Below are positions 28,981 through 46,637 of a stretch of DNA of 64,000 nt, piece after piece. The stretch is from a virus. Location: positions 11,211 through 75,210 of the IMG/VR virus record IMGVR_UViG_3300017917_001008; one strand, 5' to 3'. The translations under genes and the position numbers were made by a program. How positions within the stretch are numbered: the stretch's first letter is position 1; every line of letters begins with the position of its first letter. Under the pieces are notes generated by a model. It did no database searches. It worked only from the letters and a program-made list of their open reading frames with translations, and was not told where the DNA came from.

Positions 28981-31900
28981 ATGTTAGCGTGCCCTAATAA
29001 AAACACTAAAGATTGGCAAGACCTTGTTGACCAGTTAGGAGAGAAGGAAGCTTTCAGAGCCTACCTCACTATTGGTGACGGAACTATTCCTACAGCCCAG
29101 CAATACGTACAGTATAGCAGGCAGGCTAGTGAGGAAAAAGGAGAGATTGGTGTTAACAAGCAACAGCTGTTGATGCTTCTTGGCCCCACCATGTATAACA
29201 AGCCGCTTGCACAGGTGGCTGTAAAAGAGTTGTTACAGAATTCATTTGATGCTATTAAAGCCATGCACAACATGCGTGGTAAAACTGTAACTACTACACC
29301 TGCTGTAGACAAGTCTGCTCTGATCCGTGAGTTTAACCAGGTGCAGAGTCAGATTAAAGCTGAATCAGCTAAGGTTACTTTTGACAGTGAAGGAGATGTG
29401 CTTACAGGTGATCCTTTTGTAGTGAGCAAGCTGGTAGACAGACGTGCTGCTTTACAGGAGCAGATTGCCAACTTTGATCAGAACCAGAAAGCTAACGCTA
29501 CTACTAAGACTGGTTACGAAGGGCCGCTGGGTAATATTAAGTTTACCATTAACTATGACGACCGTACCATCTCTATACAGGATGATGGTATTGGTATGAC
29601 GCCTGATATTGTCAAGAAGGCGTTTCTCTCTATTGGTGGTACCAATAAAGAAGGACTATCTACAGGTGAGCGTTCCGGTGGATTTGGTCTGGCCAAAGTG
29701 CAGTTCTTATTGGGTAGTGAGTACGTAGAAGTGTCTACAGTGAGAGATGGTACAAGAACCTCTATTAAGGCTACCAACCTAGAGCTTTATAATGATGACT
29801 TTACTATCCGTACAGAGCCTACCAACGAACCTAACGGTACGTTTGTAAAGGTGAAGATACCAGAAACCTACACTACACCAGAAGGAACTGTTCGTACCAT
29901 TGACTTCCCTGGATCTTGGTCATCTGATCCAATAGAGCGTTTTGATATTTTAAACCAGCCCCTGATTGGTAATCTAAATGTCTCTGCAGATGTAGTGAAG
30001 AACGGTAGGACAACTAATAAGGTGTTGCCAATAGGTAAGAACATCTCTAAGGAATTATTACCTCCATTACTTTCTAATGTAAAGTTTGCCTGGGGTGAAG
30101 CTGAAGTGTACGTAGGAGAGAACAAAACAGAGTCTCCTAGACATAGAATACTTTCATCTGGATTATACCAGTTTAGTAAACGTATAGAGATTGCAAACTG
30201 GGAACCCATTCCTTATGATATTGTAATCAATATTAAACCGTCTGTAAGTTCTACAGCGGAGCAGTATCCATTTAACAACCAGCGTGAGGATTTCAAGAAT
30301 ACGGTTTCTAAAGATGTAGATAGCCTATACGCCTATTTAAGAAAGTACGCCAGGGGAGAAGCTGAGAAAGATTTAGTGGATGTATTCCAGAATATCAAGT
30401 CTTTACCTAAAACTGACCCTAACAAGATACTCACTCCTGAAGAGAGAGCTAAACTCTATGAAGAAGTAGAAAACACCATAGCTGAATCTAAACGCTTACG
30501 TGAGCAGTATGGCAGTCAGCTTAACCAGCCACGTCAGACTACAAGACTGGTGATCAGCCAGGGATCTGTAACGGATGAAGAGACTGGTGCACAAGTGGAA
30601 GTGGAGAAAGAGAAAAGCTATGAGTCTACATTTAAGGCTGATAAAGAGATTGAGTTAGGTAAGTCTGTAGACACATCTGCATTTAAAGAGAACGAACCCC
30701 AGTTTCATAATAACACTAACGTAGACTATTTGTCTATGCCCGGAGCTATAGAGTTCTTTAGTGACTTTGGTACTGTAGTGTATGAGATGGTAAGGTTTGC
30801 CGGTAGGGAGTTAGGCCACCGTTACAGCAAGCTTACAGGACAAGAAGGTAAGTTTTTTGCAGGTGTATCCATTGATAAAACCTACGGTGGCGTGCATGTC
30901 CGTAAAGTGATAGATGCCATCTTCATTAACCCGCTTTCTTTTGACATCTCCAGTGTAGAAGAAGCTGCAGGTTTGATGACCCACATCATTATACATGAGA
31001 TTAACCACACTACAGAGTCAGGTGAAGGAGCCAACTTTACCACTGCTCTGGCTAAGCTATATGGTAAGATATATGAGACCGGTAAGTATGGCTACTTTGA
31101 GGGGTTGGTTAGATCTGTATATCGTAAACATTTTGATACCTTTGTAAAACTAAAATCAGAATATGACAAGTCCACTACAAGAAATCTTGCAGCTTCGTTT
31201 GAAGGAAACGAACTCAATAGAGGCAGTGAAGGGAACCTTCAAGGGAATGCTTCAGCTGTACGAGCAGGAGAACAGACCTCTGGCAGAGATCAACGAGATC
31301 AGGAAGATCTTAGCGGATCTAGACAAGAAGACCGCACAGGAGACGTTATAATCAGTCAGCTTAACAATCCACAGACAAGTGTACCTACACTTCCTCCTGT
31401 GGAAGCCCAAAGAGCTGAGATAGGTCAAAACATAGTGCGTGCCATTGCAGACACGCTTGCTGCTAACTTAGGTGTTTCCTACACCTTAGTCACTCCTGAA
31501 GAAGCAGCTCAGCTAACAGCTAATTCCCGTAATCCATGGAAAGGTGAGAAAGCTTTCTTCTACAATGGCCAGGTGTATTTCCTGGACGGAGGCTTTACAA
31601 CAGACTCTGTACTACACGAGTTTTCACATCCACTGGTAGCAGCTATTGCTGTACAGAATCCTACGTTATTTAAGAATCTTTATGAGCAGCTGGAATCCAC
31701 ACCAGAAGGTAAGGCTGTAATAGCTGAAGTGGAAGCTTTGTATCCGGAGTTTAAACCTACAGATACCAAGTTCCGTGAAGAGGCTTTAGTAAGAGCTATG
31801 ACCGCTAAAGCTATCAACCAGATCAAGGGACAGAAACCTTCTACAGGGTTTAATGATGTGATCAACAAGATGTTGTTTGCCATTAAGCAAATGTTCCGTA

Positions 31901-34900
31901 AGCTGTTTGGTTCTTCTATAAAGATTGAAAAACTTTCTGAGAATACTTCTTTAGAGCAGCTTGCTGAGATGCTCCGTGGTGAGAAGTTTGATATTTCTAC
32001 AGAGGTGGTTACCCAGGAAGACTACGCCCAGTATGTTCGTGACATTTCTAACTTTATGTCTGAGCTGGATGCTGTAGAATATTCTGGTATTTCTACATCT
32101 GTAAAGCGTTTTTATGATGTAGTGACCAACCACATCAGACGTATTAAAGATAACAAGAACTACAGTGAGGCCCGTAAGTTCCTAGTAGATGAGACCGGTC
32201 GTGGTCAGTTACAGGAACTGAAGTCAACCCTTTCTAACTCTGAGATAGACGAGAAGCTTAGTGAGATCTTTGACGAGGTGACCCTGCAGGCTAAAACCAT
32301 GCAGAGTTTTGTACACTCAACGCTCCGTTTACAGAAACTGAGTGATAGCATTTTAAAGCATGTACGTGAGCTGGCTAAGCAGGGAGACTCTAAAGAGGTG
32401 ATCGGTAACATCTTCTACTATGACCTTCTTGTACGTAACTGGAATAAGTATATTAACGAAACCATTGATCGTCTCTCAGATGCCGGCCTAAGTCCAAACA
32501 CAGAGTTTGGCAGAGTGATTGCCGGTATACAGAATACAGTGGCTCAGACTGAAAGGATGATAGATAAGATCTATGCAGACAAGGTGGATGACGTCATCTT
32601 TGATACACTGCAACCTCTTGCAGAAAGCATTGATAACTACTTTGGTGACTGGATAGCTGGTCTTGAAAAGAAGAACGCTTCTGCACAGAAGATAGCTGAT
32701 GTTCAGAAGAAGTGGGATGAAATGAAACTTACTAAGCAGAAGATCAAAGATCTGATCAGTGGTAAGCTGGGTGATACAAATATGTACTCTGCCTTCCTGG
32801 AAGCATACACCAACTCTCCAGATCCTGTAGTGGGTGGTTTTGCCATGTTCTTGAAGAACGCCTACAATGATGTAGACGCCCAGGCTCAGCGTAACATGAA
32901 TGATTTTGTACGTGACCTGGAGCCATTGTTAATAGCTGCCGGTTACAGCCGTATGGATTATGCCGGATTAATGGAAAAGCTTGTCACTGTAGAGAAAGTT
33001 CCATTTATAGATGAGAAAGGAAACTTTGCCACTAAAGAGGTGTTTTCTTTTAAGGACAAGTTTAATGATTATAATACAGAGGCTTCCCAGTTAAGGTTTG
33101 AATATGACCAGGCTGTATCTGAAGGAGACCAGGCCCTGGCAGACCAGAAGCTCCGTGACCTGCGTAAACTACGTAGGGATTATTTCCACCAGGAATATGT
33201 ACCTGAATACTACGAGCGTGAGAAGATCTATGATTCAGAAATGGGTCGTGAAGCTTACAGACGTAAGCAGATGCTTCTTAATGAGATTAAAGAACTTGAC
33301 GCCCAGAGTTATGATGATGACGCCCTGGATTACATTGCTGATCAGAAGAAGATCCTGTGGAGAGAATACTCTCAGCTGGCTTCTTTAACAGATCTGAATG
33401 GTGATCCTAAGACAGGTCGTGAACTGGAACTGGCTAAGATTGAAAAGGAATACCGCAAGGCTTCCCGTGAGTTCTTTGAATGGGTTCCTATACAGGGTTT
33501 ATTTGAGTCTAACTTAAGACGTTTTGAACAGAGTCTGGTGGATGAGGGTATTGATATCACCTCAGATGAGTTTAAAGAAAAACGTAATAAGTGGATTAAG
33601 AACAATACCGTTATTGCTTACACCCCAGAATTCTACGAGGAGCGTAACCAGGTGCTGGAAGATCTTAGAGATCTGATGAGCGGCCTGAGTGAAGACGTAC
33701 GTAAATCTATTGACTCTACAGAGGAAATGGAAGCTATGCTTGATATAGCCACCGGCTTCCGTGACCAGGATGGTCAGGTGATCGGTACAGATATTTCCGA
33801 GAAGAGTAAGAACAAGGTGAGAGAATACCAGAAAGCCATACTTGCCAAGCGTGATTCTATGGCTGGCTTTAGTGGTCTTACCAGGGATGAAATGGATGAG
33901 CTCACTGAGATCTTCCAGAAGATGACGGCTAAGATAAAGATCACACAGGCAGAGCGTGACCGTGTAGACGAACTGATGGAGAAGAAAAACTCCATGGGTG
34001 TAGATAAGTTTACCAAGGCCGAGATGCAATCTCTATATGCTCAGCTGGCAGAACTTCAGAGTAAGGAAGCCACTGATTACTATGTAGACATTGTAAATAA
34101 CTATCTGTCTAAGATAGGTGAGCCGTTGATTGATAACGACACAGCTATTAATCTTTTAGATCCTGTAATGTATGTGGAGCTGTTTAAGAAGTCTCCAGAG
34201 TTTGAGAAATGGTTTAAAGAAAACCATATACAGAAAGAGGTGTTTGACAGAGCATCCGGGGATACTAAAATAGTTTACGAGCGTCTGTTCATCTGGAACC
34301 GCACCCGTCCTAACAACCCTGATCACTACGAGAAGATTAAACTCTCTGATGGTGAAGAGATTTTAGGTAAGCCTAATCTGTCTTATTTCTACCGTTCTGT
34401 AAAGAAAGAGTATCGTACCAAGCGTGAGGTGGGTAAGACCATAGACAACCGTGGTAACTGGTTACCTAAGTCTTTAGAAGACGGAGCTGTGGATGATAAA
34501 TACTACAACCAGGATTATGAAAAACTCCGTAGAGAAGACCCTGCAGCGTTTGCTGTACTGGAGAAGATGAAGGAATATCACCTGAAGTTCCAGGAAGGTT
34601 TTGCCCGTGAGAGTAAGTTATACCTGCAGATCCCACGCTACCGTAAACCTTCTTTAGAATCTCTTAAAGATGGTAAGTTCAAGAACAAGTGGCATGAGTG
34701 GACCACTCGTGTAAAACAGTTCTTTGCTAAAGCTCCGGATGATGTACAGGATGGATTAAACTTCAAGCCTGAACAGCTCATCTATACAGACATGTTTGAC
34801 GAGGAGATCAATAAGGTTCCTATCACCGGTCTCTATGCATTAGATACCGATCAGGTGAGTATGAACATTGCAGATAACATGTTGCGTTATATGCATTCAG

Positions 34901-36546
34901 GTTTAAAACAAAAGAAGCTGATTGAGCTTAACCCTATGGCCCAGGCTCTGAAGAAAGCGGTGGGCAGTCCGGATAGTGCCATCAAGGACATGACTAAGAT
35001 TAACAAGTGGCAGTATGTAAACACCGGTGTTAAATCCTACCTGTCTAAGAAAGGAGAGAACGTACGAGCTAAGGCTATTGCCAATCTATACGAGCGGGAG
35101 TTTGAAGGAAAGACCCAAGCAGGTTGGTTAGCCAATGCTGCTGGTGTACAGAAATTTGTACATGGATTATTAAAGCTTTCCAGCTTTGGATTATTCTCCT
35201 TTAACGTACTTCCTTCTGCCATTAAGAACAGGCAGTCAGCTATTATCCAGTTGCAGATTGAAGCCAGTGGTGGTAGATTCCTAAACTGGAACAGCTACCT
35301 GCGTGGTAAACCACGTGCTGTGTCTATGCTTGGTGCATACTCAGCTCAGCTGTATAAAACTGGTAACCGCTCTTTAGATGTGCAGCTCCTGCAGATCTTT
35401 GATCCTACCCAGGAGATATTAAACACTACGTTTGGAGACGGATCCGCCACCGATATGGGTGGTCAGTTTGGTAGATCTGTAGCCAGTGATGCTGCAAGTC
35501 TTGGATTCTTTATGGCACCACGTAAGTGGCTGGAAATTGAGTCTGCAATAGAACTCTTTAGTGGTATGATGCACCACGTTAAAGTGGAGCAGATCATCAA
35601 TGGAGAGAAGAATGAGATCCCTTATATAAACGCCTTTGAAATAGTTAACGGCCAGATAGAACTTAAAGCCGGTATTGATAAAGAGTGGGCACCTGGCGGT
35701 AAGAAGTTCAATGAGTTTAAGAACAGGGTACATGAACTGGGTAACCGTCTGAACGGTACCTATGCTAAGATGGACCAGCCTGAGGCTCAGCGTTATTTTG
35801 TATTCAGAATAGCTGCATTCTTAAAACGCTTCTTTACATCCATGTTGATGAACCGTGTAGGAGCAACCCGTCCTAGTGCAGCTCTGGGTACAGTGAGCAC
35901 CGGATACTACCGTTCTGTTTTACAGGTGGCCAGGGACTTCCTCAGATATGGTATCAAAAACTACCAGTGGTTAAGTGAAGAACAGAAGATCAACCTTCTA
36001 AAGTTTGCATCAGATATGGCTCACCAGATGGCGTTGTTATTCATCCTGAACGTAATGTTTGGATATGACGAGTCTGATGAAGACCGTTTTGAAAAGATGA
36101 GAAAACGCAGTGGAGCCTTGGGTGATGATGACTTCAACCTTTCCGGTTGGTTAACAAACCACGGACTGGTAGCTACACTGGGTACACTAACCGAGGTGGA
36201 AACTTTTGGATCCTGGAGTCCTGTAGTGGTGGGAGCGGATGGTGATCTGGATATGGCAATCCTGGGTCGTAACTGGAAGCAGTTGAAGAACACTTCTAAG
36301 ATGATCATGGATCCTAGAACACTGTACGGAACTACTATAGAGAAGCAACTTAACTTCTTAAACCACTTAAGCCAGTATTTGGATGAGGATCCAGCAGGAT
36401 TTTACAAGAGAGATGTTGGACCGTATTGGTTCCAGAAGGAGGAGTCTCCTAAGTTTATCAATGATGCGGCATCCATCTTAGGCTTTACCGGATCACAGAT
36501 AGATCCAGTAAAAGCCTTAAAAGGGATGGAGTTTGGTCGTAAGTAA
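28981..36546 (+). CDS. Giant ejection protein C with GHKL ATPase and two zincin motifs
   Basis: 2521 aa; ELLQNSFDA, DDGIGM and GGFGLA GHKL boxes; HEINH (30994) and HEFSH (31615). Confidence 0.75.
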   Translation: MLACPNKNTKDWQDLVDQLGEKEAFRAYLTIGDGTIPTAQQYVQYSRQASEEKGEIGVNKQQLLMLLGPTMYNKPLAQVAVKELLQNSFDAIKAMHNMRGKTVTTTPAVDKSALIREFNQVQSQIKAESAKVTFDSEGDVLTGDPFVVSKLVDRRAALQEQIANFDQNQKANATTKTGYEGPLGNIKFTINYDDRTISIQDDGIGMTPDIVKKAFLSIGGTNKEGLSTGERSGGFGLAKVQFLLGSEYVEVSTVRDGTRTSIKATNLELYNDDFTIRTEPTNEPNGTFVKVKIPETYTTPEGTVRTIDFPGSWSSDPIERFDILNQPLIGNLNVSADVVKNGRTTNKVLPIGKNISKELLPPLLSNVKFAWGEAEVYVGENKTESPRHRILSSGLYQFSKRIEIANWEPIPYDIVINIKPSVSSTAEQYPFNNQREDFKNTVSKDVDSLYAYLRKYARGEAEKDLVDVFQNIKSLPKTDPNKILTPEERAKLYEEVENTIAESKRLREQYGSQLNQPRQTTRLVISQGSVTDEETGAQVEVEKEKSYESTFKADKEIELGKSVDTSAFKENEPQFHNNTNVDYLSMPGAIEFFSDFGTVVYEMVRFAGRELGHRYSKLTGQEGKFFAGVSIDKTYGGVHVRKVIDAIFINPLSFDISSVEEAAGLMTHIIIHEINHTTESGEGANFTTALAKLYGKIYETGKYGYFEGLVRSVYRKHFDTFVKLKSEYDKSTTRNLAASFEGNELNRGSEGNLQGNASAVRAGEQTSGRDQRDQEDLSGSRQEDRTGDVIISQLNNPQTSVPTLPPVEAQRAEIGQNIVRAIADTLAANLGVSYTLVTPEEAAQLTANSRNPWKGEKAFFYNGQVYFLDGGFTTDSVLHEFSHPLVAAIAVQNPTLFKNLYEQLESTPEGKAVIAEVEALYPEFKPTDTKFREEALVRAMTAKAINQIKGQKPSTGFNDVINKMLFAIKQMFRKLFGSSIKIEKLSENTSLEQLAEMLRGEKFDISTEVVTQEDYAQYVRDISNFMSELDAVEYSGISTSVKRFYDVVTNHIRRIKDNKNYSEARKFLVDETGRGQLQELKSTLSNSEIDEKLSEIFDEVTLQAKTMQSFVHSTLRLQKLSDSILKHVRELAKQGDSKEVIGNIFYYDLLVRNWNKYINETIDRLSDAGLSPNTEFGRVIAGIQNTVAQTERMIDKIYADKVDDVIFDTLQPLAESIDNYFGDWIAGLEKKNASAQKIADVQKKWDEMKLTKQKIKDLISGKLGDTNMYSAFLEAYTNSPDPVVGGFAMFLKNAYNDVDAQAQRNMNDFVRDLEPLLIAAGYSRMDYAGLMEKLVTVEKVPFIDEKGNFATKEVFSFKDKFNDYNTEASQLRFEYDQAVSEGDQALADQKLRDLRKLRRDYFHQEYVPEYYEREKIYDSEMGREAYRRKQMLLNEIKELDAQSYDDDALDYIADQKKILWREYSQLASLTDLNGDPKTGRELELAKIEKEYRKASREFFEWVPIQGLFESNLRRFEQSLVDEGIDITSDEFKEKRNKWIKNNTVIAYTPEFYEERNQVLEDLRDLMSGLSEDVRKSIDSTEEMEAMLDIATGFRDQDGQVIGTDISEKSKNKVREYQKAILAKRDSMAGFSGLTRDEMDELTEIFQKMTAKIKITQAERDRVDELMEKKNSMGVDKFTKAEMQSLYAQLAELQSKEATDYYVDIVNNYLSKIGEPLIDNDTAINLLDPVMYVELFKKSPEFEKWFKENHIQKEVFDRASGDTKIVYERLFIWNRTRPNNPDHYEKIKLSDGEEILGKPNLSYFYRSVKKEYRTKREVGKTIDNRGNWLPKSLEDGAVDDKYYNQDYEKLRREDPAAFAVLEKMKEYHLKFQEGFARESKLYLQIPRYRKPSLESLKDGKFKNKWHEWTTRVKQFFAKAPDDVQDGLNFKPEQLIYTDMFDEEINKVPITGLYALDTDQVSMNIADNMLRYMHSGLKQKKLIELNPMAQALKKAVGSPDSAIKDMTKINKWQYVNTGVKSYLSKKGENVRAKAIANLYEREFEGKTQAGWLANAAGVQKFVHGLLKLSSFGLFSFNVLPSAIKNRQSAIIQLQIEASGGRFLNWNSYLRGKPRAVSMLGAYSAQLYKTGNRSLDVQLLQIFDPTQEILNTTFGDGSATDMGGQFGRSVASDAASLGFFMAPRKWLEIESAIELFSGMMHHVKVEQIINGEKNEIPYINAFEIVNGQIELKAGIDKEWAPGGKKFNEFKNRVHELGNRLNGTYAKMDQPEAQRYFVFRIAAFLKRFFTSMLMNRVGATRPSAALGTVSTGYYRSVLQVARDFLRYGIKNYQWLSEEQKINLLKFASDMAHQMALLFILNVMFGYDESDEDRFEKMRKRSGALGDDDFNLSGWLTNHGLVATLGTLTEVETFGSWSPVVVGADGDLDMAILGRNWKQLKNTSKMIMDPRTLYGTTIEKQLNFLNHLSQYLDEDPAGFYKRDVGPYWFQKEESPKFINDAASILGFTGSQIDPVKALKGMEFGRK
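31137..31146 (+). promoter_or_regulatory. Bacteroidota sigma70-type -7 element inside a giant gene
   Basis: TACCTTTGTA matches TAnnTTTG; 18 nt A-rich leader to ATG 31163. Confidence 0.6.
31163..31351 (+). CDS. Overprinted 62-aa helical protein nested in the giant C gene
   Basis: Own promoter-like element, genome-typical codons in this frame, amphipathic helix pattern; host frame here is a low-complexity linker. Confidence 0.6.
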   Translation: MTSPLQEILQLRLKETNSIEAVKGTFKGMLQLYEQENRPLAEINEIRKILADLDKKTAQETL

Positions 36547-46241: not shown

Positions 46242-46637
46242 TTATACGGGGCTGATTATGTTAGCAACAGGTTCAGCTTTCAGATAATCATCCAGGTTAA
46301 AACTGTCTGCATTAACAGCCAGCATGTTAACCACCTGCTTGATTTCATCTGCATTCTCCAGGTAATACTCATAGTATGTCTCCAGAGTTTTGCGTTCTTC
46401 TGCATAGTCTTTACCGTTGTCACGCTTACCAACCTTCAGACGCTGTACGTCACCTAGATCGTTAAGCTTGGCCACCATATGCATGCTCTGTTTCTTTTCC
46501 TTACCGATCAGGGCAAGTACTTTAGAGTCCAGATCAAATATGGCTTCATTGTATGGACTATCAGGTGTAACTGGTATCATCTTAAAGGTCTTCTTCTGAC
46601 CCCAGCTGCCAGTAATCAGCATCATTGATTTTGTCAT
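46242..46637 (-). CDS. Hypothetical protein
   Basis: 131 aa with own promoter and terminator. Confidence 0.55.
   Translation of the reverse strand: MTKSMMLITGSWGQKKTFKMIPVTPDSPYNEAIFDLDSKVLALIGKEKKQSMHMVAKLNDLGDVQRLKVGKRDNGKDYAEERKTLETYYEYYLENADEIKQVVNMLAVNADSFNLDDYLKAEPVANIISPV

Follow-up and report, generated by a model that had tools for sequence, protein, structure and literature searches.

A probable gene overprinted on the linker behind the GHKL-zincin module of a polyvalent-type giant phage protein

We identified a candidate gene nested within a much longer one in a 64,000-nucleotide stretch of viral DNA (the window), which comes from a 75.2-kb IMG/VR virus record (IMGVR_UViG_3300017917_001008). 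The longer gene, called the host gene here, encodes a giant protein of the polyvalent type, and the candidate occupies positions 31163 to 31351 in its +1 frame, at the end of a region that encodes a GHKL ATPase domain and a zincin domain (the GHKL-zincin module). Judging from sequence comparisons, we put the probability at roughly 85% that this nested open reading frame (ORF) is a real, selected and independently initiated protein-coding gene tied to the module. Its product appears to belong to an ancient family of small proteins that had not previously been annotated. An initial annotation of the window had proposed a gene at this place that travels with the module as its partner and is transcribed from a promoter of its own; the gene and its linkage to the module held up, and the promoter did not. 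What the partner does is a separate matter, and its assignment as an antidote to the module is tentative.

The nested ORF lies wholly inside the host gene (28981..36546, on the + strand, as are all features given here) in a different frame. As the initial annotation had described, it encodes 62 amino acids in the +1 frame of a gene for 2521; it starts with an ATG at 31163 and ends with a TAA at 31349-31351. The nearest upstream stop in the +1 frame is a TAA at 31151-31153, three codons before the ATG, and is built from the codon of a conserved host leucine and the base that follows it. The start lies at a domain edge: the zincin motif HEINH of the host gene is at 30994-31008, and the last helix of the zincin domain stops at about 31170 in an AlphaFold2 model. 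From there the host frame was said to become a disordered linker, and AlphaFold2 agreed, with predicted local distance difference test (pLDDT) values of 27-35 and no secondary structure for 31183-31386, a stretch rich in R, G, Q, D, E and S that the nested gene overprints. The zincin domain itself, modelled from the host-frame alignment A7, had pLDDT values of 90-98.

Codon usage in the two frames was also as annotated. The host ORF has only three CGA codons among its 2521, and two of them fall within the 63 codons of the overlap; none of the seven arginine codons there is the preferred CGT, and a score resembling the codon adaptation index is 0.49 for the host frame in the overlap versus 0.75 +/- 0.065 elsewhere. 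The nested frame uses codons typical of the genome, with a score of 0.65 versus 0.57 +/- 0.055 in other +1 segments. When a second copy of the nested ORF was sought in the window's own genome, only the ORF itself turned up.

DNA of relatives was obtained through a related-locus search that gave the loci L001-L073. Every locus that has both the module and the linker (about 40 distinct sequences) has a +1 ORF of 56-117 amino acids, with its ATG 53-61 codons downstream of the zincin HExxH and, in nearly all loci, a +1-frame stop 1-7 codons upstream of that ATG. These loci range in GC content from 0.26 to 0.69, and the identity of their host frames falls to about 25%. Stops in the +1 frame of relatives had been named beforehand as an observation that would count against the gene, and none was found in the roughly 40 relatives; in the AT-rich loci, 7-15 stops interrupt the +2 frame. 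A profile hidden Markov model built from 24 nested peptides and run against the six-frame ORFs of L041-L073 gave matches solely at the expected place and in the expected frame. The E-values were 1e-22 to 1e-2 across these loci, several of which duplicate contigs used in building the profile, and about 1e-20 to 1e-2 on contigs outside the training set. Four loci missed by the profile still carry a recognisable ORF. One locus with a very distant zincin (HEFTHNQ..., L072) has a 72-residue open +1 ORF (MQQTKSKK...) past the catalytic helix, about 96-312 nucleotides after HEFTH; its start comes earlier than those of the other loci, and it is only putatively linked to the nested family.

The probability that the +1 frame would be open, given the host residues and codon usage, was calculated exactly by dynamic programming for each host protein sequence and the codon usage of its locus. 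It ranged from 0.004 to 0.73 per locus, and the product over 32 loci was about 1e-27, a figure that overstates the significance, since the loci are related, yet many pairs are saturated at synonymous sites. The start codon is preserved through changes in the host protein. It arises from differing host codon pairs (TAT GAC, AAT GAA, CAT GAA, AAT GTC and TAT GGA), and it always needs a T at the host third position, in the host pattern NAT-Gnn. The probability of the codon choice that gives the ATG was 0.03-0.87 per locus, and 0.03-0.26 in genomes with a GC content of 0.6-0.7.

Selection on the two frames was compared by codon position in 48 within-clade pairs, pooled. The conclusions leave out pairs with L043, whose upstream frame is interrupted, and the poorly aligning group G. 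Pooled differences at host codon positions 1, 2 and 3 were 0.32, 0.25 and 0.55 in the upstream module versus 0.41, 0.31 and 0.34 in the overlap. Host third positions, which are the second positions of the nested frame, are thus constrained in the overlap, and host first positions, which are nested third positions, are the most variable. The change is clear in individual pairs: the third-position difference was 0.45 in the module and 0.04 in the overlap for L021-L037, 0.39 and 0.11 for L005-L031, and 0.44 and 0.16 for L064-L065. An alignment of the window with its closest relative, L001, covers 2130 codons, and the minimum of third-position divergence over the entire gene falls at 31123-31272.

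Purifying selection in the +1 frame of relatives was likewise found where it had been called for. OLGenie-style estimates from ten disjoint pairs, with statistics that are not tree-aware, gave an alternative-frame dNN/dNS of 0.33 (0.26-0.42) for the nested frame in the overlap, together with a host dNN/dSN of 0.62 (0.50-0.78). For the +1 frame of the upstream module, used as a control, the values were 0.73 (0.67-0.80) and 0.13, and for the +2 frame of the overlap, a second control, they were 1.20 and 0.85. Host-synonymous change drops from 0.68 to 0.35 in the overlap, and the nested frames are more identical than the host frames in most pairs. In the overlap, purifying selection is stronger on the nested frame than on the host frame.

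The nested ORF was present wherever the module and linker were present, as the initial annotation had supposed in letting the two travel together. The locus L002 (IMGVR_UViG_3300042351_000704) lacks both. It has the same 38-residue N-terminal cap (MLTCPNK...GDGSIPT) as the window, fused directly to the part of the protein behind the linker, and this junction marks the GHKL-zincin-linker unit as a cassette that is either present or absent. The segment compared was L002:2899-3100, against 28981-29095 and 31380 onward in the window. The cassette, of about 760 codons, is a clean insertion or deletion, and cassette and small gene move together among uncultured phages. The ORF is bound to the cassette at any position in the host protein, being N-terminal in the window and internal or C-terminal elsewhere. 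In L041 and L006, whose proteins finish with the module, the linker is still there with nothing after it, as if retained for the sake of the nested gene.

At L042:1722-3842 and L044:1800-3641, which belong to metagenome-assembled genomes of Chlamydiae and an uncultured bacterium, the GHKL-zincin protein stands alone, with 613-706 residues. Its N-terminus is extended by a hydrophobic segment and its gene neighbours housekeeping genes; such proteins could have come from the phage module and serve as cellular effectors. Both end at the zincin domain and have neither the linker nor the nested ORF, and no free small gene was found beside either locus. A search for DNA loci of two short stand-alone GHKL-zincin proteins, P0188 and P0198, found none.

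The prediction for the product of the nested gene is a soluble three-helix bundle, about 60-80 residues long in the family. With a 35-sequence alignment (A6), AlphaFold2 modelled the nested peptide with a mean pLDDT of 90.5 and a predicted template modelling score of 0.74, placing helices at residues 4-15, 19-35 and 40-61; the host frame over the same DNA has a pLDDT of about 30. Comparison of the peptide with PHROGs, Pfam, NCBIfam and PDB sequences gave matches at the level of chance only, and those to CdaS_N (E 0.015) and to designed helical proteins were set aside as such. The predicted fold had no Foldseek match with E <=0.001 in either PDB or BFVD. Among about 5.8 billion catalogued protein clusters, only two hold entries for the nested family.

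The conserved signals around the nested start are those of translation. Among the 27 loci with a GC content of at least 0.40, 17 have a Shine-Dalgarno-like motif 5-10 nucleotides before the nested ATG, against a background of 9.4% for ATGs that are out of frame elsewhere (binomial P about 1e-11, with no correction for the relatedness of the loci). The sequences before the ATG in these loci are TAAGGAG, TGAGGAG, AAGGAGG and the like. In these lineages GG follows the equivalent +1 stop, TAA or TGA, so that TAAGGAG or TGAGGAG results, and the motif requires AGG or AGA as the codon of a conserved host arginine. Taken together, the conserved ATG and the Shine-Dalgarno-like sites suggest that ribosomes initiate internally on the giant gene's late mRNA, in which case a separate promoter would be unnecessary. 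Bacteroidota rely little on Shine-Dalgarno pairing. The leader in the clade of the window is A-rich, which would fit initiation of the Bacteroidota type; here the start signal is read from the relatives and from what is known of Bacteroidota.

Several points weigh against the interpretation given so far. The AT-rich clade that includes the window has no Shine-Dalgarno site to speak of (1 of 11 loci). The +1 control of the selection estimates also lies below 1, at 0.73, and the method is therefore biased, though the value in the overlap is far lower. Combined P-values count related loci as independent. Short helical peptides reach high pLDDT easily, and no homology or fold match points to a function for the nested peptide. 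Finally, the case for an obligatory antidote is weakened by the stand-alone GHKL-zincin proteins, which manage with no such small gene.

As to function, the producing cell would make the small protein alongside the GHKL-zincin effector, and as an antidote or inhibitor the small protein would bind the module and keep it in check until the giant protein is packaged. We regard this as the best single guess, though well short of an even chance, and propose it tentatively. The physical coupling expected of an effector and its antidote was found, in that small gene and module always occur together and both are absent from L002. The same linkage and the same evidence for co-expression, however, would serve a product that does not inhibit the module at all, for instance a chaperone that helps the giant protein fold or be packaged, a GHKL ATPase cofactor, or a small anti-defence protein that is unrelated to the module and only shares its cassette. 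A non-inhibitor of some kind is, in our estimate, a strong contender that falls short of an even chance, and the chaperone and the ATPase cofactor, taken together, are about as likely as the antidote. Stand-alone GHKL-zincin homologues that need no partner speak for such a product, as does a three-helix bundle without an informative match. An unrelated passenger is harder to reconcile with the strict physical coupling to one module at any position in the host protein; nothing specific stands against the other non-inhibitor roles. If the antidote reading were correct, cassettes of injected polyvalent proteins might more generally carry an antidote or obligate partner overprinted on the linker behind the effector, and recombination then could not separate effector from partner. 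This wider proposal we consider rather unlikely.

That the nested gene has a host-type promoter of its own and is transcribed independently of the late operon, as the initial annotation held, now seems improbable. The proposal was based on TACCTTTGTA at 31137..31146, which resembles the -7 promoter element of Bacteroidota and arises from the host codons for D-T-F-V. The motif is indeed present at 31137-31146, and the -7 consensus TAnnTTTG is matched by TACCTTTG at 31137-31144; the spacing to the ATG is 16 nucleotides instead of the 18 first given. In its favour are also the likeness to sites before the genes at 46637, 48842, 54246 and 62307 and the presence of TACATTTGTA in one relative, L031. 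Against it, the number of such motifs is near chance. In the window TANNTTTGTA occurs 8 times versus 4.15 expected, a count reached by 6 of 100 shuffles. Half of the copies (four) are intergenic and precede genes, and the other four lie inside genes, where their number equals the chance expectation. The intergenic copies mostly extend to TTTGTAGA, unlike the copy at 31137, and no TTTG was found at the spacing of a -33 element, about 19-21 nucleotides upstream of 31137, the only copies being 1 and about 37 nucleotides upstream. Nor is the motif conserved. Among about 12 AT-rich relatives it is kept only in the window and in L031, in which the host protein reads F-V; it is absent from L001, which has TACATATAAA in its place, and from L004, L005, L006, L008 and others, where host residues differ. 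With conserved signals that are translational and not transcriptional, a dedicated promoter is not supported. Overall, TANNTTTG is depleted in the window (38 versus 57 expected), as would be seen under selection against spurious promoter-like sites. Around the intergenic TTTGTAGA copies are TCTACA/TGTAGA palindromes.

The nested frame could also be entered by a programmed +1 ribosomal frameshift, which would yield a GHKL-zincin protein of reduced length whose C-terminal tail is the three-helix segment, in place of a separate 62-residue protein. Shine-Dalgarno-like sequences are able to stimulate frameshifting, as is established for prfB and dnaX, and the stand-alone GHKL-zincin proteins terminate near the nested start. 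In nearly all loci, however, the +1 stop is so close to the ATG (1-7 codons upstream) that almost no space is left for a shift site, and there is no conserved slippery or stall sequence. The ATG is maintained by host-synonymous choice even at a GC content of 0.6-0.7, where TAT is rare, and the spacing between the Shine-Dalgarno-like site and the ATG suits initiation. Homologues in which the nested peptide is longer or fused in frame were sought and not found, which is weak evidence. We rejected the frameshift as very improbable. The view that the ORF is an accidental by-product of a hydrophilic linker, open in the +1 frame without translation or selection, can draw on the rarity in Leu/Ile/Val/Met-poor linkers of the host codons ending in TA or TG that +1 stops require, and on open-frame probabilities of up to 0.5-0.7 in some GC-rich loci, but it is contradicted by the selection tests (constrained host-synonymous sites, the low nested ratio, a nested peptide better conserved than the host peptide), by the joint open-frame probability, by the retention of the ATG and Shine-Dalgarno-like site, and by a specific profile search and a confidently predicted fold, and we rejected it as scarcely credible.

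A real gene tied to the module remains our preferred reading, and the protein in which it is embedded deserves description. The + strand of the window carries a series of giant genes. The parts of the host protein are, in order, the N-terminal cap, the GHKL ATPase domain, the zincin with HEINH, the disordered linker, a second zincin with HEFSH and a long C-terminal part; two HExxH domains and a GHKL domain in one giant protein place it among the polyvalent proteins. The GHKL ATPase domain (Pfam PF13589/PF02518) spans residues 181-295, and the GHKL-zincin module as a whole extends over about 29131..31170, with approximate bounds taken from the Pfam match, from 774 matching cluster representatives in large protein collections, and from AlphaFold2. 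The same collections contain 79 full-length relatives of the host protein, many with LPD and ART-PolyVal Pfam domains (PF18857, PF18858, PF18760 and PF18763). DNA and protein searches of cultured-phage collections gave no match except a weak GHKL similarity to rIIA, and plasmid collections yielded nothing similar. The similarity to rIIA concerns the GHKL domain only (29500-29870 in the window) and the GHKL part of rIIA from Vibrio, Agrobacterium and Aeromonas phages, at 24-30% identity and E-values of 1e-3 to 1e-5.

In the host frame the middle of the linker is poorly conserved, and conservation is confined to both ends of the overlap, with Y-D-K-S-x-T-R-N-L-S-x-S-F-E-G at one and D-K/R-T-G-D-V-I at the other. 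The latter motif lies at 31327..31350, at the 3' end of the overlap, and contains the nested stop; D784 and G787 are invariant in it and I790 is nearly so. Over the AT-rich and mid-GC clades the motif is nearly invariant, and the giant protein may be processed there, perhaps through cleavage by its own zincin. A second stretch of the host gene with a stop-free +1 frame is found at 33145-33294 (50 codons). Its third-position divergence from L001 is 0.30 versus 0.48 gene-wide, and positions 1 and 2 are also very conserved, so the low divergence probably reflects a strongly conserved protein segment.

Gene callers as a rule discard embedded genes, and the nested family is found in two protein clusters versus 774 cluster representatives for its module. 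For phage biology this would be a new and ancient family of small proteins, attached to an injected effector module that is unstudied. Since the nested start can be abolished without altering the host protein, the gene also offers a clean genetic handle. As a case of overprinting it is unusual in that the embedded frame is ordered and the more constrained of the two. The disordered linkers of giant phage proteins seem worth screening for genes in a second frame. Should the antidote reading prove true, "immunity in the linker" would be a new way to encode effector-partner pairs, and other inter-domain linkers of giant phage proteins would hide similar genes.

Among known systems, the arrangement recalls the spanin genes of phage lambda, in which Rz1 is embedded in Rz. 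In both cases a small gene lies wholly in a longer phage gene, in the +1 frame and with its own start, and it is made off the same late transcript, as we suppose for the nested gene; the products of Rz and Rz1 act together. Rz1, however, is a lipoprotein with a signal sequence and a role in lysis, whereas the nested product is a predicted soluble three-helix bundle, and the two have no relation in sequence or fold. The host gene of the window, unlike Rz, encodes an injected polyvalent effector, and the overlap falls on a disordered linker between domains. Polymorphic toxin systems are built on pairs of toxin and immunity genes. Likened to these from the sequence alone, the small gene is positioned directly at the 3' edge of a region that codes for effector domains and moves as part of a cassette, but it overlaps the reading frame of the effector instead of following it.

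Overprinted genes of small viruses (phiX174 E in D; cases in PMC8227390 and PMC3494269) resemble the present pair in that one stretch of DNA codes in two frames, an ordered product is paired with a disordered one, and synonymous sites of the host frame are constrained. They differ in that the newer frame is usually the disordered one, whereas here the embedded frame is ordered and more constrained, and in that the pair described here is kept over phages with a GC content of 0.26-0.69, in a genome without obvious size pressure. A parallel for the host protein is offered by the polyvalent proteins that phages and conjugative elements encode (Iyer et al. 2017, PMC5512222), which are likewise giant multidomain proteins with zincin-like metallopeptidase domains. 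That account makes no mention of GHKL/Hsp90-like domains, overlapping genes, frameshifts or immunity proteins, and the nested gene adds to its picture of these proteins.

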